Source: Octopus sinensis (Eukaryota). Taken from it: DNA of 27,381 nucleotides. Position 1 is the first letter of the stretch. Each line of letters begins with the position of its first letter. Below the pieces are notes generated by a model. It did no database searches, had not been told where the DNA came from, and saw only the letters and a program-made list of their open reading frames with translations. A program made the position numbers and the translations under genes. Of the stretch, positions 8,827 to 23,047 are shown piece after piece. The stretch covers positions 1 through 27,381 of the forward strand of contig NW_021833355.1 in the NCBI RefSeq assembly GCF_006345805.1. Reading direction: 5' to 3'.

Positions 8827-9508
8827 AAAGCGGTGAAGTTGTGGAATCAGTACAGCATCAAACACAACGTGAACATACAAGCTCTTTCCATTCAGTGCGC
8901 TCAAACTGATTCAGGTAGTGTTGTGCTTTTAAGTGGGGCGTAGTAGTTTTAAAAAAAGTTAAGGACTAAATGCCGAGACAGACAGACAGACAGACTGATA
9001 ACTAACCAGACAGACAGACTGATGGAAAGTGGTGTTAAAGACAGAAGACGTCATGGATATAGAAAGTGAATCATTCGAGAAATTACTTACGGCTCTTTAT
9101 CTCAAGTGTCCGGCGATTTGTAAGAAGGTCAAAGGACAAATTGCACTTATTGGTCAAGTGGCCAATATGCCATTGAGCTGGCCTTTGTGTTTTACTAAAC
9201 ACAATTCGGCTTTGGCTGATGTAACAACTGCTGACCTCTTTCACACGGAAAGATGCGATCAGCTTTTGTATGTATGTATGTATGTATGTATGTATGCATG
9301 TATGTATGTATGTATGTAGTTTTTCTGTTCTTTTTTATTCTTTTTTTAGAATTTTTCATCAATGAAGAAAGAGCAGGTTCCTTGCCTAAAAGCATGTTGG
9401 CGAGTTGGCAGAGTTGTTAGAGTGTCTCGGATAGAAAGGCCTTGAGATATTCCAAGTCCTCAAGCTCTGGGGTTCACTTCACCGTTCTTCCATCCGGAAG
9501 TTCATTGA

Positions 9509-9586
9509 CTCAAAGCAGAGACTGAAGGATTTTGAATTGCAGCACAAGACCAAAGCCTCCTCACCAGAAATTACCAAAAGCATATA
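9509..9586 (+). pseudogene. R4/Dong-like ORF fragment (region upstream of the zinc knuckle)
   Basis: Translates LKAETEGF*IAAQDQSLLTRNYQKHI, matching the ETEG..IA.QDQ...TRNY motif of RLE-clade elements. Confidence 0.65.
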
Positions 9587-9998
9587 TATTTCTTTACTAC
9601 CCACAAGGGGCTAAACACAGAGGGGACAAACAAGGACAGACAAAGGGATTAAGTCGATTACATCGACCCCAGTGCGTAACTGGTACTTAATTTATCGACC
9701 CCGAAAGGATGAAAGGCAAAGTCGACCTCGACGGAATTTGAACTCAGAACGTAGCGGCAGACGAAATACCTATTTCTTTACTACCCACAAGGGGCTAAAC
9801 ACAGAGAGGACAAACAAGGACAGACAAAGGGATTAAGTCGATTACATCGACCCCAGTGCGTAACTGGTACTTAATTTATCGACCCCGAAAGGATGAAAGG
9901 CAAAGTCGACCTCGACGGAATTTGAACTCGGAACGTAACGACAGACGAAATACGGCTACGCAGGTCGCCCGGCGTGCTAACGTTTCTGCCAGCTCGCC
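9587..9998 (-). mobile_element. SINE family B: head + 2 tandem 184-bp units
   Basis: Units start at 9587 and 9771; head ends ...gccagctcgcc; probable TSD ccaaaagcatata (9574-9586) / ccaaaaacatata (9997-10009). Confidence 0.92.
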
Positions 9999-10147
9999 AA
10001 AAACATATAGCGAATGGCTATGGAGGTCCAGCAGAGAGGAATGAAAGGGTCCATAAAGGGTCCAGAAAAAAAAGGGTTGAAAACCGCAACTTTAAGCTAA
10101 TTGTAATCGTTTATTTCTTGAATAGAAACAGTTTGAAAAGTAGCCAC

Positions 10148-10824
10148 TCTCTTTACTCTTTTACTCTTTTACTTGTTTCAGTCATTTGACTGCGGCCATG
10201 CTGGAGCACCGCCTTTTAGTCGAGAAAATCGACCCCCGGGACTTATTCTTTTGTAAGCCTAGTACTTATTCTATCGGTTCTCTTTTGCCGAACCGCTGAG
10301 TGACGGGGACGTAAACACACCAGCATCGGTTGTCAGGCAATGCTAGGGGGACAAACACAGACGCACAAACATACACACACATACATATATATCGCCATGT
10401 TGATTCGCTAGCTTCTGCACACATTTTTTTTCTCTCCTTCTTTCTGTGTTTTTTCTCTGTGTATCTTTCTGTTGAAGAGCGTAAGCTCGAAACGTTAAAG
10501 ACTTGTTTTATTTATATTTCCTGAGCGCCATACTAATACAATTGTTTGTTTGTATTCCACCTGCCTTCGTCTTTTGTTTATTTCCGTAAACCTGCCTTCG
10601 TCTTTTGTCTATTTTCATAAAGCTTCCCGTTATATATATATATATATATACATATATACGACAGGCTTCTTTCAGTTTCCGTCTACCAAATCCACTCACA
10701 AGGCATTGGTCGGCCCGGGGCTATAGCAGAATACATTTGCCCAAGATGCCACGCAGTGGGACTGAACCCGGAACCATGTGGTTGGTTAGCAAGCTACTTA
10801 CCACACAGCCACTCCTGCGCCTAT
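10148..10824 (-). mobile_element. SINE family A, full length, with a ~240-bp insertion in its internal microsatellite
   Basis: Tail 10148-10390 and head 10632-10824 are colinear with other A copies. Confidence 0.92.
10393..10631 (+). mobile_element. Putative Penelope-like element terminal-repeat fragment with a hammerhead-like motif
   Basis: Inserted in (TA)n; contains tcttt-CTGTTGA-a-GAGC-gtaa-GCTC-GAAAC-GTT-aaaga at 10464-10501; internal duplication of acctgccttcgtcttttgt. Confidence 0.55.
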
Positions 10825-11701
10825 GTAAATCAAAGTTTTCAAATAAGATTAAAGCTCGAATGGATATTTTGGTTAAATGTGAACCTATTCAACTCAAAAG
10901 CTGTAAATTGTAAAGCAATCGCTAGGGTCGGGTACGTGGTTGAACGTTGTTTATTTTGCAAATGGCAGATCTTGAGGTGCGGGAAGGAATCGTTTAGAGA
11001 GTAGTGGGAGTGAATCTCCTGTCAAGAAGACAAATAAGTGATGAAAAATTATTTATTTAACAGAAGTCAGAGGTGTGAAAAGTTTAAGAGATTCATAAGA
11101 AAAGTACAAGAAAATGGGTGGAAGTTTTACGGCAATTAAAGTGTGTAAACGGATAGGTAGTGTATGGAAGCGATAAATCTAGAAACAGTGATGTCAATAG
11201 ATGCAATGTTTAGATGTTCAGACGATGCACTGATTAGAGAGGAGGTGAAATGCTACGATGGCGATATCAGGAGAACTGATGAAAGAGCGCTGAAGAATGG
11301 TAGACAGGAAGAAATCTGATGGAATCTGAAAAGTAAAATTTGCCGAAGAAATTAAAAGAAACTTACGATTAAAAGTGAAAAGGTAAAACTGCGAAATAAA
11401 TTAGTTAATGTTTTGTTAAGATGTAATTTGGTTTCCAGGAAGACATCTTCTATCGATTTTCATGAGTGAATGATAGGAGAAAATACATATTGAAGTGATA
11501 TCAGAATGATATAGCAGAATATAGAACAAACACTCGTTTGTTATCTGAATATAAAACCTTTCGTTGGAATAATAGTGTTGAAAAGTAAGGCAGCATATTG
11601 AGACTCTTGGCAAAACAAAGAAGGATTGAAAGAAAATTATATAATAAAGGAAAGTTATGTGGATATATATATATATAATATTCTTTGTTGAGTAACATCT
11701 A

Positions 11702-11861
11702 GCTTCTTTCAGTTTCCGTCTACCAAATCCACTCACAAGGCTTTGGTCGACCTGAGGCTATAGCAGAAGACACTTGCCCAAGGTGCCACGCAGTGGGAAT
11801 GAACCCGGAACCATGTGGTTGGTTAGCAAGCTACTTACCACACAGCCACTCCTGCGCGTAT
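11702..11861 (-). mobile_element. SINE family A, 5' half only
   Basis: gcttctttcagtttccgtctacc...cacagccactcctgcgcgtat. Confidence 0.92.
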
Positions 11862-11883
11862 GGCTTCTCAACTTTGTTTCATC

Positions 11884-12204
11884 ATAGGCGCAGGAGTGGC
11901 TGTGTGGTAAGTAGCTTGCTAACCAACCACATGGTTCCGGGTTCAGTCCCACTGCGTGGCATCTTGGGCAAGTGTCTTCTGCTATAGCCTCGGGCCGACC
12001 AAAGCCTTGTGAGTGGATTTGGTAGACGGAAACTGAAAGAAGCCTGTCGTATATATATATATTAATCAGCCGAAATTGCTAAGATGATCCGGTTCCTGAC
12101 TGAAGATTAGAGGCTTCGAATGACCTGTCTTTTTTTTGTGTCGTCTCTTTGTGTAGTTTGCGTTCTTGTCCCCTTTTGTACATTTTATATATAAGTTTTA
12201 TACG

Positions 12205-12273
<69 letters not shown>

Positions 12274-12492
12274 TTGTATGTCTGTCTTTGTCCCTCTAGC
12301 ATTGCTTGACAACCGATGCTGGTGTGTTTACGTCCCCGTCACTTAGCGGTTCGGTAAAAGAGATACCGATAGAATAAGTACTGGGCTTACAAAAGAATAA
12401 GTTCCCGGGGGTCGATTTGCTCGACTAAAAGGCAGTGCTCCAGCATGGCCGCAGTCAAATGACTGAAACAAGTAAAAGAGAAGAAAGAGTAA
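11884..12492 (+). mobile_element. SINE family A, full length, with an insertion at ~12061-12204
   Basis: ataggcgcaggagtggc head through gactgaaacaagtaaaagag tail. Confidence 0.93.
12061..12204 (+). mobile_element. (TA)n-inserted retroelement end fragment; homologous copy at ~21050-21172 (minus)
   Basis: taatcagccgaaattgctaagatgatccgg...cttcgaatgacc...ttgtccccttttgta vs reverse complement of 21050-21172: taatcagccgaaattgcgaagataatctgg...cttcgaatgact...ttgtcccattttgta. Confidence 0.75.
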
Positions 12493-12664
12493 TTTTAAAG
12501 CCCACCAGTCTTTAAAGTCCATTATAATTTTCCCCAGTCGCTCTCTTTACTTTAATTACTCCACTTCCGACACTTCATTACTCATTAACGTCACTCAATC
12601 TCCCAATTAAACAATTAATCCCAATTGCTGCAATCTTCATTACGTATTTCAAATTTTCCTCTCA

Positions 12665-13070
12665 CTTTACTCTTTTACTCTTTTACTTGTTTCAGTCATT
12701 TGACTGCGGCCATGCTGGAGCACCGCCTTTAGTCGAGCAACTCGACCCCCGGGACTTATTCTTTTGTAAGCCCAGTACTTATTCTATCGGTCTCTCTTTT
12801 GCCGAACCGCTAAGTGACGGGGACATAAACACACCAGCATCGGTTGTCAAGCGATGTTGGGGAGACAAACACAGACACACAAACACACATACGCATATAT
12901 ATATATATACATATATACGACGGGCTTCTTTCAGTTTCCGTCTACCAAATCCACTCACAAGGCTTTGGTCGGCCCGAGGCTATAGTAGAAGACACTTGCC
13001 CAAGGTGCCACGCAGTGGGACTGAACCCGGAACCATGTGGTTGGTAAACAAGCTACTTACCACACAGCCA
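12665..13070 (-). mobile_element. SINE family A, near full length
   Basis: Colinear match to other A copies. Confidence 0.93.
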
Positions 13071-13365
13071 GTACTTTCTTATTTTCTCTTGCTTGCCATC
13101 AGAATTAATCTCACTAGGACATGCCGTGTTTTTATTTAAATAACTGGTCTTCTACCAGTGATGTACTGGTTTAAATTAATTTAATTAATTAAATATGGTT
13201 ACTGAATTAAATGCGGCTGCTTCATGAAGTGTTGTAAATTGTTTAACTGTGAACTCTCTGTTAACTGTGATCAGTCAATACTGTTTTATAAACTACTTTA
13301 ACAGGAATGAGTTGTTACATAACCGCTACTAATCGAAATTTTAACTCACTATATTACACGAGTCA

Positions 13366-13597
13366 AGTCGGCGAGCTGGCAGAAACGTTAGCACGCCGGG
13401 CGAAATGCGTAGCCGTATTTCGTCTGTCGTTACGTTCCGAGTTCAAATTCCGCCGAGGTCGACTTTGCCTTTCATCCTTTCGGGGTCGATAAATTAAGTA
13501 CCAGTTACGCACTGGGGTCGATGTAATCGACTTAATCCATTTGTCTGTCCTTGTTTGTCCCCTCTGTGTTTAGCCCCTTGTGGGTAGTAAAGAAATA
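13366..13597 (+). mobile_element. SINE family B monomer (tRNA-like head + one unit)
   Basis: 16-bp TSD tatattacacgagtca (13350-13365) / tatattacatgagtca (13598-13613); B-box-like GAGTTCAAATTCC. Confidence 0.95.
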
Positions 13598-13654
13598 TAT
13601 ATTACATGAGTCAGATCCTAACACTTTAATTATGTAGAATTCAACCTTGAAGTA

Positions 13655-14071
13655 GGATCTTTTCGGTTTGAACGGCAGTTTTTAAAAATAATTTCCACGT
13701 AACTAAACACTTTTAAACTTCGTATACTGGTAGAATGTGTTTATAAAACATCTTTTTCTCTTGGCTTTATTGAGAAAATTCTATGGTTTGTAAGACATTT
13801 GTTGTTTTTTTCCTTCAATTTCTGCAATTTCAACCAATCAATGACGTCTATTGAGGTAAAAAAAAAAAAACATTCTGTGCCGTATGAATATGTCCCTCGT
13901 TTAAGAAACAGATTGGGTTTATTTACATTTGTGAAGAAAAAAAGATACCCTTCCCCCCACCCCTAACCCTAACCCTAAAACAGATTGAAATGCAATACTA
14001 GGGTCATAATTATGGGTGACAATTTCATATGACACCGCTAGAAAAAACTGCCGTTCAAACCGAAAAGACCC
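13655..14071. mobile_element. Non-autonomous TIR DNA transposon (MITE), possibly Merlin-like
   Basis: 29-bp TIRs ggatcttttcggtttgaacggcagttttt / aaaaactgccgttcaaaccgaaaagaccc (1 mismatch); 8-bp TSD ttgaagta at 13647-13654 and 14072-14079. GG termini plus an 8-bp TSD suggest Merlin (inference). Confidence 0.92.
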
Positions 14072-14501
14072 TTGAAGTATTCAGCTAAGGCTATATATTT
14101 TCCATATTCATAAGCACTATACTTTCTTTATTTCTGCGTATATAACTTGATGACGTTTAGTCATGCCAAATGAGAAGAATATACTTCACTAAAGAGATCC
14201 AATAAGACCGAAACGTCTGTTACTTTCATCAATCTACCACTTCAATCTGCCATAGTCTGCTTCGTCGAAAATTATTAATCAACACATCTTTTTGGAGTTA
14301 TCTCCCTTCTTTTCATTAAATATCTTAAAAATCCCTAGAGGGTGTTTTATCTGCTAATTGCTTGATCTTTCAACGTTACTTTACAAGTATTTAGTATGCA
14401 GAATGCTCCCCTGGGGTATGTTCCTATAGAGTTAAACTGTTATCAGACGGCCAATTATGAATTCAATAAATTGTGAATATTCAGCAGTGTATATCATCCA
14501 A

Positions 14502-14744
14502 TCTTTTGAGAGAGCACGTATCCAGCATGAAGAACTTAAGCGAGCTGCGCGAAAGCGCACGGCTCGTATAGTGAATGGGGAAAGCTTGATCTGCAATGTT
14601 TGCAGTCGTGTATGCTTGTCAAGAGCAGGGCTCATTAGCCACCAACGGAGTCGCAAATGCAAAATATAAGTTAGTCCTAGAGCGCACAATGTTCTTGAAG
14701 GTCGGCAATGGTCTTCCTCGGTCACGAGTGGACGGCCATCATCG
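14502..14744 (+). mobile_element. 5'-truncated RTE-clade LINE 3' end
   Basis: FERARIQHEELKRAARK...CNVCSRVCLSRAGLISHQR is an RTE-type C-terminal zinc finger; short 3' UTR ending ccatcatc; 10-bp TSD tatcatccaa at 14492-14501 and 14745-14754. Confidence 0.85.
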
Positions 14745-14949
14745 TATCATCCAAACTCCTACAACAATCTCTTCTCGTTCAGTGTTTATTTAGAAAGAGG
14801 AATATGAAGTTATGGAGATGATCAAGCCCCATTCACTTTCGTGTCTCCGAGTATAGGTACCGGAGAATGTGTGTAGCCATTGTTGAGTTGCTTGAAGGTC
14901 TTTGCACAGACGTATGCAAACAAAAGAAGTGATTGACATTATTTTTCTA

Positions 14950-15521
14950 TTTACTCTTTTACTCTTTTACTTGTTTCAGTCATTTGACTGCGGCTATGCT
15001 GGAGCACCGCCTTTTTGTCGAGCAAATCGACCCCAGGAACTTATTCTTTGTATGAGAGGTGGTAGTCAGTTTCCGCCTACCAAATCCATTCACAAGGCTT
15101 TGGTCGGCCCGAGGTTAAAGTAGAAGACACATGCCCAAGGTGCTACGCAGTGGGACTGAACCCGGAACCAGGTGGTTGGTAAGCAAGCTACTTACCACAC
15201 AGCCACTCCTGTGCCTATTCTTTGTAAGCCTAGTACTTATTCTATCAGTCTCTTTTGCCGAACCGCTAAGTTACAGGGACATAAACACACCAACATCAGT
15301 TGTCAAGCGATGTTGGGGGAACAAACACAGACACATAAACATATACACACACATACATATACATATATACGACGGGCTTCTTTCAGTTTCCGTCTACCAA
15401 ATCCACTCACAAGGCTTTGGTCGGCCCGAGGCTATAGTAGAAGACACATGCTCTAGGTGCCATGCAGTGGGACTGAACCCGGAACCATGTGATTGGCAAG
15501 CAAGCTACTTACCACACAGCC
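14950..15521 (-). mobile_element. Rearranged SINE A composite: tail piece (14950-15052), head piece (15066-15218), body+head (15217-15521)
   Basis: tattctttgta occurs at the end of the first piece and the start of the third, consistent with one A fragment nested in another. Confidence 0.85.
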
Positions 15522-15921
15522 GTATATATAAACTTCGCTTTTATTACCCCACAGGTAGCGAAACTATACTGTTATGTTTTTGAAAATCAGTCAGCCAATC
15601 AAATTTAATTGCTTTTTCGTTGAATTGTATTACATCATATCATATTGTATTACACGAAACATCCCAATTTTTATTTTAATATGATCACAACTGTCCGATG
15701 AATGGTAACGTGAAACTAAGTAACAGTTTGTGAAAATTTTTTTCGGCTTTAATAAAAGCATTGTGCTCTACCTTCGGTATAAGAGTATTATTTTTTCTAC
15801 CTTGTTTTGCATCTATCTATCTACTCGTGTATATATATATAAACCTCTGTTGATTTACCAAGTGATAAATTAGAGGACCCAGTAAAAGTGCGGAGAATTT
15901 TATATGCTATATACATTATAT

Positions 15922-16217
15922 GTGGAGGCGCAATGGCCCAGTGGTTAGGGCAGCGGACTCGCAGTCGTAGGATCGCGGTTTCGATTCCCAGATCGGGCTT
16001 TGTGTGTGTTTATTGAGCAAAAACACCTAAAAGCTCCACGAGGCTCCGGCAAGAGTGGAGGTGATCCCTGCTGTACTCTTTCACCACTCTTTCTCTCTTT
16101 CTTCTGTTGGCCTGCCCGCTTAGCCAGCGGGGTGGCGTCGTTCGAAGGCTAAAACAATGCGAAGCGCATTGTGACCAGCGATGTGTAGCAACATCTGATG
16201 GTCTGGTCGGTCACGTG
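15922..16217 (+). mobile_element. tRNA-derived SINE family C, short-tail form (possibly octopus OR2-type)
   Basis: A box TGGCCCAGTGG, B-box-like GTTTCGATTCC; 13-bp TSD atatacattatat (15909-15921 / 16218-16230). Family name from memory. Confidence 0.92.
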
Positions 16218-16248
16218 ATATACATTATATACCTGATATACTTAATTG

Positions 16249-16518
16249 GTGAAGGCGCATGGCTCAGTGGTTAGAGCGTAAGCTCAAAACCATAAGTAGC
16301 GTGTTCGATTCCTGGACCGGGCTGTGTTCGTGAGGAAGATATTTTATTTCACGTTGCTCCAGTTCACTTAGCTGTAGAAATGAGTTGCGACATCACTGGT
16401 GCCAAGCTGTATTGGCCCTTGCCTTTCTCTGGGATAACATCGGTGGCATGGAGAGGGGAGGCTGGTATGCATGGGCGACTACTGGTCTTCCATAAAACAA
16501 CCTTTCTCGGACTTGCGG
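16249..16518 (+). mobile_element. Older tRNA-derived SINE (family D) with a CORE-like central domain
   Basis: A box TGGCTCAGTGG, B box GTTCGATTCC, then ttatttcacgttgctccagttcacttagctgtagaaatgag resembling the CORE-SINE domain. Confidence 0.7.
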
Positions 16519-16535
16519 TGCTTTTTTTTTCTCAG

Positions 16536-16975
16536 ATAGGCGCAGGAGTGGCTGTGTGGTAAGTAGCTTGCTTACCAACCACATGGTTCTGGGTTCAGTC
16601 CCATTGCGTGGCACCTTGGGCAACTGTCTTCTACTATAGCCTCGGGCCGACCAAAGCCTTGTGAGTGGATTTGGTAGACGGAAACTGGAAGAAGCCCGTC
16701 GTATATATGTATGTATATATATATGTATGTGTGTGTAAATGTTTGTGTGTCTGTGTTTGTCCCTCTAGCATTGCTTGACAACCGATACTGGTGTGTTTAC
16801 GTCCCTGTCACTTAGTGGGTCGGCAAAATAGACCGATAAAATTAGTACTGGGCTTACAAAGAATAAGTCCTGGGGTCGATTTGCTCGACTAAAGGTGGTG
16901 CTCCAGCATGGCCGCAGTCAAATGACTGAAACAAGTAAAAGAGTAAAGAGTAAAAGAGTAAAGAGTAAAAGAGTA
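16536..16975 (+). mobile_element. SINE family A, full length, with an extended (GAGTAAA/GAGTAAAA)n tail
   Basis: Complete head-to-tail match. Confidence 0.94.
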
Positions 16976-17230
16976 TAACACTCAGGCCAACTAAAACCTT
17001 GTGCGTGGATTCTGCACGCACGCTGTCATATCACAATAAAATCTCTTAACGAAACATTATAGCGATACCATATAATTCATTCGTCTAGCTTTTTTTTTTG
17101 CTTTTTTTCGTTTGCTTGTCTGTGTGATTTCGTTTTTTATATAATTAATGTAATTAACAGTCTTTTAATAACTTCTTATTGAGAAAATTCGACCGAAATA
17201 GAAACAGTGCTTTCTATCTACTTTCTAATA

Positions 17231-17808
17231 CTTGTGGGTAGTAAAGAAATAGGTATTTCATCCGTCTTTACGTTCTGATTTCAAATTCCGCCGAGGTCGA
17301 CCTTGCCTTTCATTCTTTCGGGGCCGATTAAATAAGTACCAGTTATGCACTGGAGTCGATGTAATCGACTTAATCCGTTCGTCTGTCCTTGTTTGTCCCC
17401 TCTGTGTTTAGCCCCTTGTGGGTAGTAAAGAAATAGGTATTTCATCTGTCTTTACGTTCTGAGTTCAAATTCCGCTGAGGTCGACTTTGCCTTTCATTCT
17501 TTCGGGGCCGATTAAATAAGTACCAGTTATGCACTGGAGTCGATGTAATCGACTTAATCCGTTCGTCTGTCCTTGTTTGTCCCCTCTGTGTTTAGCCCCT
17601 TGTGGGTAGTAAAGAAATAGATATTTCGTCTGCCGTTACGTTTTGAGTTCAAATTCCGCCGTGGTCGACTTTACCTTTCATCCTTTCGGGGGTCGATCAA
17701 ATAAGTACCAGTTGCGCACTGGGGTCGATATAATCGACTTAATCCGTTTGTCTGTCCTTGTTTGTCCTCTCTGTGTTTAGCCCCTTGTGGGCAATAAAGA
17801 AAGAAATA
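17231..17808 (+). mobile_element. SINE family B: headless array (tail stub + 3 x 184-bp units)
   Basis: aaatag junction anchors at 17247, 17431, 17615 (period 184). Confidence 0.92.
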
Positions 17809-18018
17809 TGTGCATTGTACATTAGCTCACTCTATCCATCAAATCGAAGTTACCTGAACAGGTGCATGGTATATAATATCACGTGTCAGGTGTTGAAGTG
17901 ATCGCAGAGCAACACGTGATGAAGTGTTTTGCTAAAAAAAAAAACGTATAACCCGGTCAAGGAATTGAAATCATGATCGTGAGAGCAACTCCCTAATCAC
18001 TAGGCCATGCGTCCTCAC
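17809..18018 (-). mobile_element. tRNA-derived SINE family E (diverged)
   Basis: Reverse complement gtgaggacgcatggcctagtgattaggg...ctctcacgatc...tttcaattcc...ctgttcagg...agagtgagctaatg is homologous to 26700-26955. Confidence 0.75.
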
Positions 18019-18028
18019 TAGATCTTTA

Positions 18029-18860
18029 GATGTGATATATCTCGACTTAGCCAAGGTCTTCGATAAAATTGATCACGGAGTGATATGACACAGACTGTTT
18101 GACCTTAGTTTCATTGGAAGTCTACAGGAATGGCTGCGAGACATTTTTTAAGAGATAAAAAACAGGAGTCAGACAGTCGCGCCCAATGGTGTTCTCTGAG
18201 AAGAAATACCAATTCAAAGCGGAACCCCTCGGAGAACCGCACTGTAACCGTCTATGTTCGCAGCGGCTCCCTTAGATATACCCTTAGCCATACAGTCAAC
18301 CATTCTCACCAGCTACACTGACGATGCAAAAATTTAAGAGGCGCAGGAGTGGCTGTGAGGTAAGTAGCTTGCTAACCAACCACATGGTTCCAGGTTCAGT
18401 CCCACTGCGTGGCATCGTGTGCAAGTGTCTTCTACTATAGCCCCGGGCCGACCAAAGCCTTGTGAGTGGATTTGGTAGACGGAAACTAAAAGAAGCCGGT
18501 CGTATATATGTATATATATATGTGTGTATGTATGTGTGTGTGTTTGTGTGTCTGTGTTTGTCCCCCTAGCATTGCTTGACAACCGATGCTGGTGTGTTTA
18601 CGTCCCCGTCACTTAGCGGTTCGGCAAATGAGACCGATAGAATAAGTACTGGGCTTACAAAAAGAATAAGTCCCGGGGTCGATTTGCTCGACTGAAGGCG
18701 GTGCTCCAGCATGGCCGCAGCCAAATGACGGAAACAAAGTAAAAGAGTAAAAGAGTAATCAAGAATTCTGGTGATTATGCGAAACTACAGAAAGAACTGG
18801 ACTCGTACGAGTGGATTGAAGAAAACAACACTGTACAATGCTGACATTTTTCAATTCGCT
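18029..18860 (+). pseudogene. Decayed CR1/L2-group LINE reverse transcriptase, split by SINE A
   Basis: DVIYLDLAKVFDKIDH...QSGTPRRTAL*PSMF...SYTDDAKI, then after the SINE DYAKLQKELDS..EWIEENN; matches the YLDF.KAFD, SGVPQG, YADD and LQ.DLD motifs. Confidence 0.85.
18339..18758 (+). mobile_element. SINE family A, full length
   Basis: Complete head-to-tail match; inserted just after the YTDD motif of the LINE relic. Confidence 0.94.
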
Positions 18861-18906
18861 GTCCACCCACAAACTGCTATCAAATTATACAGGGTGATGA
18901 AGTATA

Positions 18907-19505
18907 TATTTCTTTATTGCCCACAAGGGGCTAAACACAGAGGGGACGAACAAGGACAGACAAACGGATTAAGTCGATTATATCGACCCCAGTGCGTAAC
19001 TGGTACTTAATTTATCGACCCCGAAAGGATGAAAGGCAAAGTCGACCTCGGCGGAATTTGAACTTCGAAGGTAACCTCAGACGAAATACCTATTTCTTTA
19101 TTACCCACAAGGGGCTAAACACAGAGGGGACAAACAAGGACAGACAAAGGGATTAAGTCGATTACATCGACCCCAGTGCGTAACTGGTACTTAATTTATC
19201 GACCCCGAAAGGATGAAAGGCAAAGTCGACCTCGGCGGAATTTGAACTTCGAAGGTAACCTCAGACGAAATACCTATTTCTTTATTACCCACAAGGGGCT
19301 AAACACAGAGGGAACAAACAAGGATAGACAAAGGGATTAAGTCGATTACATCGAACCCAGTGCGTAACTGGTACTTAATTTATCGACCCCGAAAGGATGA
19401 AAGGCAAAGTCGACCCCGGCGGAATTTGAACTTCGAACGTAACGACAGACGAAATACGGCTACGCATTTCGCCCGGCGTGCTAACGTTTCTGCCAGCTCG
19501 CCGCC
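18907..19505 (-). mobile_element. SINE family B: head + 3 tandem 184-bp units
   Basis: Units start at 18907, 19091, 19275; head ends ...gccagctcgccgcc. Confidence 0.93.
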
Positions 19506-19591
19506 TTAGCAAATCCGGATGTACGATCAGGGGCCCTGGGAATCCACATCACAAATAATGTATCATTCCGTGCGCTTATAACTAAGATAGC

Positions 19592-19979
19592 GGAGGCGCA
19601 ATGGCCCAGTGGTTAGGGCAGCGGACTCGCGGTCGTAGGATCGCGGTTTCGATTCCCAGACCGGGCGTTGTGAGTGTTTATTGAGCGAAAACACCTGAAA
19701 GCTCCACGACGCTCCGGCAGGGGATGGTGGTGATCCCTGCTGTACTCTTTCACCACAACTTTCTCTCACTCTTACTTCCTGTTTCTGTTGTACCTGTATT
19801 TCAAAGGGCCGGCCTTGTCACTCTCTGTTTCACGCTGAATATCCCCGAGAACTACGTTAAGGGTGCACGTGTCTGTGGAGTGCGCAGCCACTTACACGTT
19901 AATTTCACGAGCAGGCTGTTCCGTTGATCGGATCAACCGGAACCCTCGTCGTCGTAATCGACGGAGTGCTTAAGGAAGG
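19592..19979 (+). mobile_element. tRNA-derived SINE family C, long-tail form (possibly octopus OR1-type)
   Basis: Same head as 15922; 12-bp TSD aactaagatagc (19580-19591 / 19980-19991). Confidence 0.93.
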
Positions 19980-20354
19980 AACTAAGATAGCATCGTCCAT
20001 TCGTCTTCCCTTATTCACTCTTTTTCTACTTTTTTTTTTCACCTCCGGCTTCTATCTTTTTTCACTTTTTCGTCATCGTAGTCGCGAACCAACACCCAGA
20101 CACCCAGCCATCCACTCTCCCTTCATGCCATTCCTATCGACTAACTAGTCGGTGTGATATGAGAACGATGAGTCAGTGATCAGAAGTTCAAACCCAGATA
20201 ACAACTGGCTGCATGTTGTTCACGTAAATATAACTCGGCAGATAAACAGTCGTTGATTGATTCACACAAATAGACGGGTCGTGTGCACGCGAGTGAGTAC
20301 TGTATATGGATATACACACTCACTCATACACACATACATACATACATACATACA

Positions 20355-20385
<31 letters not shown>

Positions 20386-20459
20386 GTATATGCATTCATG
20401 TATGTATATATATATATATATATAAAATAATACATATACATATAAATACACACAGTATG

Positions 20460-20490
<31 letters not shown>

Positions 20491-20660
20491 TGTGGTGTGT
20501 GTGTTGTGTATATAAGTAAATACACAAACACAAACACACCACACACACACACATATATATGTATATCAATGATAATTAAGGGTAAAATTAATTAATCAAT
20601 TAATAATTAATAATTTTACCAAGTAGTTCGGTATTTTAAAAGAACCATTATCGGTAAATT

Positions 20661-20894
20661 TATGCAAAAATTTTATAATTACAAGCATAATTATAATTAG
20701 GGTTCATCAAAATTGCTTCACCACATACCGAAGTTTAGAAATACCAGTTAAATACTATTCCACTACCATAAGATATCTCCCAGACAGGTAGTGGAATAGT
20801 ATTTAACTGCTATTTCTAAACTTCGGTACGTGTTGAAGCAATTTTTGCTGAACCTTAATTATAATTATGCTTATAATTATAAAATTTTTGTATA
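20661..20894. repeat. AT-rich long inverted repeat (arms 20661-20767 and 20787-20894; 19-nt spacer)
   Basis: About 107-bp arms with ~8 differences by manual comparison; embedded in (CA)/(TA) microsatellite. Confidence 0.92.
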
Positions 20895-20997
20895 CACACA
20901 CACACAAACACACAAACAAACACAACACACACACACCACACACACAACACACACACCCATACACACACACACACACCCACACACCACACACATACAC

Positions 20998-21042
<45 letters not shown>

Positions 21043-21049
21043 ATATATA

Positions 21050-21172
21050 AATACAAAATGGGACAACGAAACATCGAGATAGACGATACAAAGAAAACAA
21101 GGACGAGTCATTCGAAGTTTTCTTTCCTCAGACAAGTACCAGATTATCTTCGCAATTTCGGCTGATTATACT
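21050..21172 (-). mobile_element. (TA)n-inserted element fragment homologous to 12061-12204
   Basis: See 12061 entry; (TA)n on both sides. Confidence 0.75.
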
Positions 21173-21206
<34 letters not shown>

Positions 21207-21367
21207 TGACTAAAGTTATATTCTAGGATTGAGAGTTTCGTGCGTTAGCATTCATAACTAAATTCTAGGCCCTTGAGTCTCTGTGTTGCTTCTGCATTAG
21301 TTTGATAAGTGCTAACGCATATAACTTACGTCATAGATATGAATTGTATGGAGCTGTTTTGTATATA

Positions 21368-22647
21368 TGCGAAGAGGTACCCAAAAGTAAGCGGAAACGT
21401 TTTCTGTGGGACAAACCCGTGGTGGTTCAGCCTTCCGCTGCGACAAGCTGCTCGATGCAACCCTCGAGCAACGGTCTGCCGACCGGCGGCTTCTGTTTGG
21501 ATCGTTCTACCACGTGGTGTGATTTTGTTTAGCAGTGCTTCTCTCCTGTTCGTCGTGTTTTACGGTGGCTGAAACGAAGGGACAGCGTGCTCCCGTGAAA
21601 TTCTGTTTTATGCTGGGGAAAACGGCGGCCGAAACAGTTGTCAAGCTTACAAGGGCGCTGCCATGAGCAAAGCACAAGTTTACAAGTGGTTTTACATGTT
21701 ATAGGAATGGTCACTTGTATTTGAAAACCAACCTAGTTCAGGGTGACCGTGGATCTCCTGAACGAATGAAAACATCACGAAAATTCCTGAACTGATTTTT
21801 TGTGGGGAAGGGTCTCCGAACAATTGACGAACTTGTTGATATGATTGATATGAAAGGCGGCGAGCTGGCAGAATCGTTAGCACGCCGGGCGAAACGCTTA
21901 GCGGTATTTCGTCTGCCGCTACGTTCTGAGTTCAAATTCCGCCGGGGTCGACTTTGCCTTTCATCCTTTCGGGGTCGATAAATTAAGTACCAGTTACGTA
22001 CTGGGGTCGATGTAACCGACTTAATCCGTTTGTCTGTCCTTGTTTGTCCCCTCTATGTTTAGCCCCTTGTGGGCAATAAAGAAATAGGTATTTCGTCTGC
22101 CGCTACGTTCTGAGTTCAAATTCCGCCGGGGTCGACTTTGCCTTTCATCCTTTCGGGGTCGATAAATTAAGTACCAGTTACGCACTGGGGTCGATGTAAC
22201 CGACTTAATCCGTTTGTCTGTCCTTGTTTGTCCCTCCTGTGTTTATCCCCTTGTGGGTAGTAAAGAAATAGATATGATTGGTGTGTTCTGGAGCTCCTGC
22301 TAACGAATTTTGAGCGAGGAATTGCGTATGCAAAGAGTTGCAGCAAAATCTGTGCCTCGCTTGCTCACGGAAGATCAAAAGCAGTCACGACTGAATGAAT
22401 GCGTGTCGTGAATTTAACGAACAGCTGTAAGTTGACCCGGACCTTTTTTCGAAGGTTATCGCTGGTGACAAGAACTGGTGCTACGGCTACTACCGAGGAA
22501 ACGAAACAGTAATCAGGTCATGGAAGCATTCAGTGTCACCGCGGCCCCAAAATGTGCGTCAAGTGAAGTCCAATGTTAAGACGATACTGATTTGTTTCAT
22601 CGATACGAAAGTAATTGTCCACACAATATTTGATCCTCCTGGTCAAA
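21368..22647 (+). mobile_element. Decayed mariner-family DNA transposon (transposase pseudogene), 3'-truncated
   Basis: QRAPVKFCFMLGKTAAETV, MSKAQVYKWF, RTIDELVDMI, RVAAKSVPRLLTEDQKQSRL (WVPHEL-type), KVIAGDKNWCYGY (first catalytic D region), VKSNVKTILICFIDTKVIVH..PPGQ; multiple stops and frameshifts; left end approximate. Confidence 0.88.
21856..22270 (+). mobile_element. SINE family B: head + 2 units, inserted in the mariner ORF
   Basis: 10-bp TSD gatatgattg (21838-21847 / 22271-22280) flanks the whole dimer, with 8 extra nt at the 5' side. Confidence 0.94.
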
Positions 22648-22844
22648 TATAGGAATGTTAGAGCCACAAGTTAATAGTCTTTATGTTTTAATCGTCCTTG
22701 ATATATTTTATATGCATGGAAAACTTGGGAAATTTTCGCATATATGCTTTTGTATACGCATACATGAGTGTGCATGTGCTTGCGTATATATGTGTGTCTA
22801 CGCATTATTGCATGTGCCTTTGTATGTCTTCACAATACGAAAAA

Positions 22845-22920
22845 TACATTCCGGAGGATGCTCAAGGTGGCCTTTACCGGGATGATGGTTTCCTAATACT
22901 TACCAACGGTACAAAAATTT
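22845..22920 (+). pseudogene. Penelope-like element RT catalytic-motif fragment
   Basis: GGLYRDDGFLIL at ~22866-22901 matches the GLYRDDGL motif recalled for Naiad-type PLE RTs; very short; lies between microsatellite-like tracts. Confidence 0.55.
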
Positions 22921-22973
22921 AAGTTTCCAAACCACAGCTGTGAGTGTATGTGTGTGTATGTATGTGTGTGTGT

Positions 22974-23047
<74 letters not shown>

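Follow-up and report, generated by a model that had tools for sequence, protein, structure and literature searches.

Why should the copies of a short interspersed element (SINE) stand in tandem arrays whose units all start at the same base? The question is raised by a stretch of 27,381 nucleotides from Octopus sinensis (NW_021833355.1; hereafter the window), an entire contig of a 2.72-Gb genome assembly, which holds five loci of one SINE made up of a tRNA-like head and one or more units of 184 bp. We propose that the arrays were built mainly by recurrent insertion of the SINE into itself, helped by re-mobilisation and local duplication, and assign this reading a probability of about 0.7; that the fixed junction between units is a target site of long interspersed elements (LINEs) is very probable. 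Self-insertion is proposed because the two fixed junctions of the SINE are two LINE insertion sites, because the tails of the SINE and of the LINEs are alike, because SINEs nested in SINEs exist and because the units of an array are ordered by age. The decisive element, LINE families inserted at the exact junction bases, lies outside the window, in which a tblastn search for a LINE fragment found none.

The five loci had been described in an earlier sequence-only reading, and all were recovered by Tandem Repeats Finder and BLAST with the unit numbers given there (2, 1, more than 3 in a headless array, 3 and 2). Positions within the 232-bp SINE are numbered after the window's single-unit copy, monomer B, q1 being window position 13366. 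A box- and B box-like motifs of an RNA polymerase III (Pol III) promoter lie in the head, and motif search together with inspection confirmed that the B box is retained and the A box missing in repeated units; trimer D has two B box variants that escaped the motif pattern and are visible in the sequence. The extended 13-bp hairpin with a TAGC loop folds as had been claimed, with its 3' arm beginning at q49. ARAGORN returned no tRNA at its default threshold, and at a relaxed threshold only it scored both heads as tRNA-like, with differing isotypes. According to SINEBase (PMC3531059), a tRNA-derived SINE is short, has at least 100 dispersed copies and bears a tRNA-related head with at least 60% identity over 60 nt. 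The octopus element is short and dispersed, carries target-site duplications (TSDs) of retroposition (48 of 63 monomers with a TSD score of at least 9; null 2.7%) and has its 3' tail in common with LINEs; the claim of a tRNA-like SINE is supported. The label MetaSINE, considered first, implies a 66-bp Meta domain behind the head; it found no support in a single BivaMeta-SINE1 excerpt, which by eye was unlike the SINE body.

One head motif alone has 18,400 exact matches in the assembly. A blind sample of 60 stretches of 10 kb at round coordinates (600 kb) contained 43 loci with the tail type of monomer B (tail A), 11 with a junction and 32 with none, which extrapolates to about 195,000 tail-A loci, about 50,000 of them with a junction. 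Older relatives share head and body and end in other tails (B1-B3).

All seven junctions of the window fall at one position, as the earlier reading had it, six in the form GAAATAG/GTATTTC and one as GAAATAG/ATATTTC (the slash marks the joint), and each joins the tail end q232 to q49. The exact 23-mer of this junction, J1, has 30,625 copies in the assembly (reversed-pattern control, 0), and a pattern permitting 0-16 free bases has 30,961. Among the first 100 matches listed for the latter, 74 were exact, 23 had substitutions only and 3 had length changes by hand count; 97 hold register. The register is thus fixed genome-wide, yet it is not unique: a second fixed junction, J2, re-enters at head base q16, gives a unit of 217 bp and has 3,137 exact copies. 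Re-entry points in the blind sample were q49 in 15 cases and q16-17 in 2, and 25 of the 32 J2 junctions examined come after a C-type tail. The 'extra G' of J1 is the first target base of G-type heads (TAGC/GGTATTTC), so that the true junction reads GAAATA/GGTATTTC; 343 J1 junctions, about 1%, start with C. A C-type head precedes 15 of 26 C junctions and 11 of 51 G junctions (p=0.002, classifiable cases only, with 4 of 30 C and 40 of 91 G junctions set aside as unclassifiable or behind another junction). Copies of the B-tailed relatives, each of full length, follow one another head to tail in loose runs with short AT-rich spacers (L024:6381-7284, L027:675-1326, L035:3370-3745, L063:9075-9461), a clustering of another kind than the J1 arrays.

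Exactly the J1 bases are occupied by a young, partly intact LINE family, Tx1-b, which first surfaced as a variant junction at locus L174. LINE 3' ends came to light in fetched DNA as copies of tail A not joined to the SINE body. The Tx1-b tail has 139 matches in the genome and a 35-mer of tail plus target 126 (an overlapping, non-nested pattern); the first 30 of the 139 loci comprise 29 LINE ends and a SINE. Every one of the 29 ends enters the SINE body at J1 (q49), 28 directly and one past a 7-nt repeat. For 20 of these copies 8 kb of upstream sequence was examined, and the order was the same in all: SINE head to q48, a copy of about 16 bp of q49-64, then the LINE, 4.96-5.48 kb in total. On either side of the insertion the first duplicated base agrees with the head type of the host (C in 13 copies, G in 7). 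Because the LINE ends are near-identical (99.3% over 190 pairs) while the host heads (87.0%) and host bodies (90.7%) are divergent, and because the first base is matched to the head, the Tx1-b copies are independent insertions into pre-existing SINE copies. Downstream tails vary among the composites, several of which retain the SINE's own outer TSD. Movement of the LINE together with its flanking SINE halves as one composite was considered and rejected on these identities, on the varied downstream architecture and on the head-matched first bases. The 20 copies sit in intact heads, none in an existing tail/J1 junction (L283-L302). Recognition by Tx1-b, as the insertions suggest, needs head sequence upstream of the cut.

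The second open reading frame (ORF2) of Tx1-b (P0001) has 1134 codons, is open in 3 of 20 copies (L287, L292, L294) and encodes an apurinic/apyrimidinic endonuclease (APE; PF03372), a reverse transcriptase (RT; PF00078) and a zf-RVT domain (PF13966); ORF1 carries a zinc knuckle (PF00098). The best named match is the TX1 149-kDa protein (322 bits; human L1 ORF2p, 221 bits), and the designation Tx1-like follows such match scores with named proteins rather than an RT tree. Kojima (2015; PMC4494074) calls a family target-specific if more than 20% of its flanks lie in one repeat; for Tx1-b the SINE forms all flanks examined, 29 on the 3' side and 20 on the 5' side.

If the junctions are LINE targets, J2 should hold a LINE of its own, and J2 was set as a test on these grounds. 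A sister LINE, Tx1-c, with 66-77% amino acid identity to P0001, was found there. A J2 pattern with a non-SINE tail end gave 88 matches. Of 30 loci fetched, 10 hold sequence foreign to the SINE upstream; they represent 7 places, each with similarity to ORF1, and the 5' duplication was seen at 2 of these. L393 begins with head q1-15 and the 13-bp duplication, after which come a 5.36-kb Tx1-c LINE, the duplication again, two ORF1-only derivatives of about 1.67 kb, each followed by the 13-bp duplication, and the remainder of the SINE; L395/L396 shows this arrangement with ORF1-only derivatives alone. These derivatives have open frames of 450-455 codons and form tandem stacks (L393:2420-7790, L394:79-3441, L395:6105-7783, L396:71-1743), and other ORF1-bearing elements with related tails are also present at J2 (L397-L401).

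A third family, Tx1-a, has APE, RT and zf-RVT domains and 5,133 tail matches. TATC-type repeats, 21 of 30 beginning CATATCTA, occupy its 3' side and are either its target or its tail; copies (L042; L223-L252) are nearly always followed by a microsatellite of this type. The position of Tx1-a at TATC repeats may explain the TAT class of SINE TSD starts, which is the largest (29 of 82). The last 40 nt of tail A are identical at 29-36 of 40 positions to five natural Tx1-like LINE 3' ends.

Tx1-clade LINEs with passengers are known: Tx1L lies in Tx1D, and Tx1-Mar and SINEU-3 lie in Mariner-N4_AMi (Kojima 2015, PMC4494074). As with Tx1-Mar and SINEU-3, an APE-type LINE of the octopus occupies one fixed position within another mobile element, a dependent SINE would share this target and sequential insertion would lead to tandems; sister families in that paper sit in microsatellites, with which Tx1-a is associated here. 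The targets in Kojima's systems are a DNA transposon, a long terminal repeat element, a small nuclear RNA gene or a microsatellite, whereas in the octopus the target is the dependent SINE itself and two LINE families use two sites in its head. Their tandems also keep a TSD between full copies; the octopus units, by contrast, are headless and without spacer. A partner SINE serving as its LINE's own target would seem to be a new variation on the target specificity of Tx1 elements. Neither a LINE targeting its partner SINE nor this octopod tandem form was reported in the literature searched, outside which lay Repbase, Dfam and subscription papers. Papers on octopus repeats list L1-Tx1 and SINE classes (PMC13282606, PMC8967140), and targets or tandems are not mentioned in the excerpts of these two. 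Four further papers (PMC4758252, PMC4640811, PMC8869645, PMC3747384) gave general background only.

Full-length SINEs inserted into SINEs at J1 are also found. A head followed by q49-64 and a new head was matched 51 times, at 28 places and with 5' joints that vary. Of 20 nested loci examined, 11 repeat the target 3' of the inserted tail, and in 4 of these a private base matches as well; 6 have no 3' junction by pattern search and 3 have other ends. After nested insertion the duplicated head (65-67 bp) has itself been amplified to 3-10 copies, a second SINE-derived tandem (L334-L342, L350-L354, C3430:1373-2207; L336 with its own outer TSD).

The steps that we propose for self-insertion build on target-primed reverse transcription, an established process. 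The LINE endonuclease would nick the SINE head at the predicted cut q48/49, and RT would copy SINE RNA starting from tail A at the nick. A top-strand overhang of about 16 nt could then anneal to q49-64 of the new cDNA and start second-strand synthesis. Such an insertion would add exactly q65-232 and q49-64, that is 184 bp, and the same arithmetic at J2 gives 217 bp; the homology-based join would leave neither a second head nor a visible duplication, and the outer TSD would be that of the host copy. The seamless join is modelled on the integration of R2 co-transcripts, which is assisted by homology (cited in PMC4494074). In R2, joining becomes more precise if the RNA carries flanks homologous to the target. 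R2 differs in its restriction-like endonuclease and ribosomal DNA target, and the homology in the octopus would be the passenger's own body. Because a T4 terminator is missing in 4 of 5 window loci, Pol III is proposed to read through arrays, so that multimers and J1-primed copies would be re-mobilised and would spread the G-type junction. Unequal exchange or slippage would homogenise and lengthen a minority of arrays.

The composition of the arrays bears on this proposal and on its rivals; the array sets differ by test (87 for rare alleles, 51 for haplotypes, 57 for nearest neighbours). At the linked sites q126/q129, 19 of 51 arrays have unlike haplotypes in units 1 and 2; 47% would be expected if units were independent and nearly none if they came from one template at 4% background divergence. 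At least two rare alleles are common to units 1 and 2 in 18 of 87 arrays (null 1%), and in 55 of 87 there is none. Window arrays C, D and E belong to this homogeneous minority, which is why the earlier reader saw private variants shared within arrays; they are real in the window and a minority pattern among the arrays compared. Of the 87 arrays, 84 have 2-4 tail-A units, and a few arrays of 7-10 units are homogeneous. The GGGCAATAA tail accounts for 22 of 43 terminal tails and 5 of 138 internal ones (p=4e-12), the last unit of array C being of this terminal type, and many arrays terminate in a body with tail B3.

Divergence rises along the arrays. First units differ from consensus by 4.2% and terminal B3 units by 8.2%, the last being older in 17 of 19 arrays (p=2e-4) and uncorrelated with the first; for terminal A units the values are 3.5% and 4.7% (32 up and 14 down of 51, p=0.003), and in 35 arrays of 3-5 units the first, middle and last units stand at 3.8, 5.4 and 7.3%. 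Divergence of the head is correlated with that of the last unit (rho 0.31, p=0.044, n=42) and not with that of the first (0.07). Because divergence increases from 5' to 3' and the head follows the last unit, head and last unit look like the older host, behind whose head younger units were joined. Units 1 and 2 are mutually closest in 6 of 57 arrays, a test that was set aside as biased against any single-template model.

A history in which few founding insertions at LINE sites gave multimeric masters, most arrays being retroposed copies cut by priming at any tail and self-insertion being rare, seems to us unlikely, even though several observations favour it. A single outer TSD pair surrounds 31 of 56 single-head multimers (18 of 35 with an A end, 13 of 21 with a B end; null 2.7%), which supports the earlier observation of TSDs around whole multimers; an outer TSD is, however, also expected after later invasion of a host copy. 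In the window, TSDs were found at both dimers (9/10 and 10/10) and at the monomer (15/16); none was found for trimer D and none was seen at array C, so that the claim of flanking TSDs holds for part of the loci. Reads of DNA runs compared with 17100-19620 gave no empty-site joint among the rows displayed, which repeat matches dominated. TSDs of A-ended copies begin GGT in 15 of 82 cases against a background of 1%, which fits either RNA running past J1 or a relaxed endonuclease preference. The tail variant is coupled to the sequence that follows, GGT or GAT coming after 0 of 18 GGGCAATAA tails and 21 of 51 others, and the preference of J2 for C-type tails is of the same kind. C-type heads with G junctions also speak for inherited masters, and several nested loci have one 5' joint in common, one having moved as a unit (L336). 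Against this history stands the age order: co-inserted units should be equal in age, but last units are older, and B3 ends are uncorrelated with first units. C junctions moreover track C-type heads, and nested insertions have many 5' joints. Of the alternative that the earlier reading had named, multimeric master copies, some descent is supported, then, but not the age relations that it predicts.

DNA-level unequal exchange or slippage, which has been proposed for the SINE tandems of bivalves and reptiles, is very improbable as the builder of the arrays. A monomer offers no internal repeat able to yield the junction, the 55 arrays without a shared rare allele tell against it, and because the register coincides with both LINE sites, which exchange leaves unaccounted for, it is contradicted as the sole cause. 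We accept it as a secondary process, to which the arrays with shared rare alleles, the single haplotype of many long arrays and the 65-bp head repeats after nested insertions point; a variant of trimer D is confined to its units 2 and 3 and was found nowhere else in the assembly. In Scapharca broughtonii, where unequal recombination was proposed for TSD-(SINE)n-TSD tandems (Martelossi et al. 2024, PMC11481361), the first copy likewise has a full head, later copies are cut at one head position and one outer TSD pair is present. Inner tails there are truncated and tandems make up 3% of high-scoring SINEs, whereas in the octopus the inner copies keep their whole tail, a junction is present at 11 of 43 sampled loci and the truncation point coincides with a LINE target. 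Recombination was also invoked for squamate SINE-derived satellites (sSats; Vassetzky et al. 2023, PMC10702118), which loosely resemble the octopus arrays: a portion of a SINE is repeated in tandem, the terminal unit is longer, and in some cases the unit starts in the head and retains the B box. Those satellites have at least 4 homogenised middle units and tend to be subtelomeric; the octopus arrays are dispersed, heterogeneous and mostly of 2-4 units.

A circular or pseudo-circular RNA, or re-entry of RT on the same RNA, would lay down n unit copies in one event, and it was this origin that the earlier reading inferred, through cleavage and ligation of the loop or pairing of the tail with the hairpin arm. 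The fixed register and the homogeneous minority, including C, D, E and an array of 7 units of nearly one haplotype (L132), agree with it, and RNA already past J1 could supply the homology for re-entry. We consider it very improbable and do not uphold the claim. The hammerhead core CTGANGA is absent from both strands of the five loci, as had been stated, and an Rfam search of positions 9000-23000 at E up to 5 gave 48 matches, none on SINE units, none a ribozyme and none at gathering score. On paper the tail GAAATA is complementary to the TATTTC arm, but in the predicted ensemble this pairing has a probability of 0.000, whereas pairing within the head's hairpin reaches 0.9985; in predicted folding the circular 184-mer is no stabler than shuffles (z +0.66). 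Contigs from four sequencing runs presumed to be RNA cover the element, and in contigs a circle would look like a genomic tandem. Mixed haplotypes, the different terminal tail, the age gradient and the second junction J2 are also at odds with one template, and 184-bp units have no A box, yet most arrays start with a head. Metazoan non-LTR retrozymes, which have type I hammerheads and circularise (PMC11722881), share with the octopus element tandem units of 170-400 nt mobilised by other elements; the octopus SINE, with no hammerhead found, has instead Pol III boxes, a head and a LINE-like tail.

Several points weigh against self-insertion as we propose it. The 3' ends of other Tx1-like families fit tail A better (34-36/40) than that of Tx1-b (29-32/40), and J1 stands mostly behind GGGTAGTAA tails, whereas the Tx1-b tail is of the GGGCAATAA type; for these two reasons most J1 arrays may have been built by a related family that is extinct or has yet to be seen. 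Nested intermediates are rare (the 51 matches above), and private variants of unit 2 in the duplicated q50-64 were found in unit 1 in 5 of 44 cases against 44 of 443 elsewhere. About three quarters of tail-A loci (32 of 43) have no junction, so that targeting of the SINE is partial. The reference for divergence was the pooled majority of each column, and subfamily structure could inflate the age gradient; the seamless 5' join is inferred rather than directly seen. Simple seamless insertion does not lead one to expect G junctions behind C-type heads (11 of 51), and C junctions are rare (343 against 30,625) despite frequent Tx1-b insertion in C-type heads; because of these two findings many of the arrays now in the genome may have been inherited. 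Part of the mismatch could be due to selection for unmutated targets and to joining at a point higher in the head, but a large contribution probably comes from multimers that were re-mobilised. In the window, A and D combine a C-type head with a G junction; they are inherited or head-replaced and were then homogenised locally. The positions of the window loci are collected in Table 1.

Table 1. Positions of the SINE loci and their features in the window.
Feature	Position	Strand	Details
Dimer A	9587..9998	-	head 9998-9955, C-type (GCGTAGC/C); unit 1 9954-9771; unit 2 9770-9587; J1 at 9771/9770
Dimer A TSD	~10000-10009 and 9577-9586		weak, 10 bp
Monomer B, reference copy	13366..13597	+	head 13366-13413; body 13414-13532; tail A 13533-13597
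Monomer B TSD	13350-13365 and 13598-13613		15/16 match
Pol III A box of monomer B head	13377..13391	+	
J2 target in monomer B	13381-13393		stretch equals the 13-bp duplication of Tx1-c insertions
13-bp hairpin, anticodon-arm position	13397..13426	+	loop TAGC 13410-13413; J1 at 13413/13414
J1 target position	13414..13429	+	~16 bases duplicated elsewhere in the genome by Tx1-b LINEs and nested SINEs
Pol III B box	13439..13451	+	within the repeated unit
Tail A, final 40 nt	13558..13597	+	compared with 3' ends of Tx1-like families
Headless array C	17231..17808	+	21-nt tail stub, then 3 units; junctions 17251/17252, 17435/17436, 17619/17620
Trimer D	18907..19507	-	C-type head 19507-19459; units 19458-19275, 19274-19091, 19090-18907
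Dimer E	21855..22270	+	G-type head 21855-21902; unit 1 21903-22086; unit 2 22087-22270
Dimer E TSD	21838-21847 and 22271-22280		7 additional bases at the 5' joint

Other repeats share the window with these loci. Dimer E splits a decayed sequence (21340-21847 and 22271-22640), the translation of which we take, by its motifs, to be mariner-transposase-like; a 69-aa piece gave no Pfam match. A second abundant SINE-like repeat is present in several copies (10660-10825, 11700-12050, 12920-13070, 18340-18500), often adjoining a third repeat, and its inverted pair at 11700-12050 forms a long hairpin with weak Rfam matches to microRNA families. An imperfect inverted repeat of about 135 bp in AT-rich DNA (20710-20844), with a sub-threshold Rfam microRNA match, is possibly similar to miniature inverted-repeat transposable elements. 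Another tRNA-headed repeat (19590-19975), with A and B box-like motifs at its 5' end, lies on the opposite strand about 85 bp from the head of trimer D.

Taking these results together, we see slightly better than even chances for a closed parasite loop in its entirety: Tx1-like LINEs would have taken an abundant SINE as a safe landing site at two bases of its Pol III promoter region; the SINE would have captured the LINE 3' recognition tail and become self-targeting, growing by exact units of 184 bp or 217 bp through RNA-templated insertion sealed by homology; and this RT-driven route to tens of thousands of arrays may also underlie the SINE tandems of bivalves and reptiles. The papers cited here on head-truncated SINE tandems ascribe them to unequal recombination, and the octopus case offers a testable, enzyme-based origin for them, namely to seek a LINE at the base of truncation. 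The scale of the phenomenon bears on repeat annotation and on SINE dating in the octopus genome. Three sister APE endonucleases associated with different sites (J1, J2 and TATC repeats), one with open copies, constitute a natural set in which to study change of target specificity. Finally, the LINEs use their own dependent SINE as a target, and because insertion at J1 splits the A box from the B box and insertion at J2 lands in the A box, parasite and hyperparasite constrain each other.

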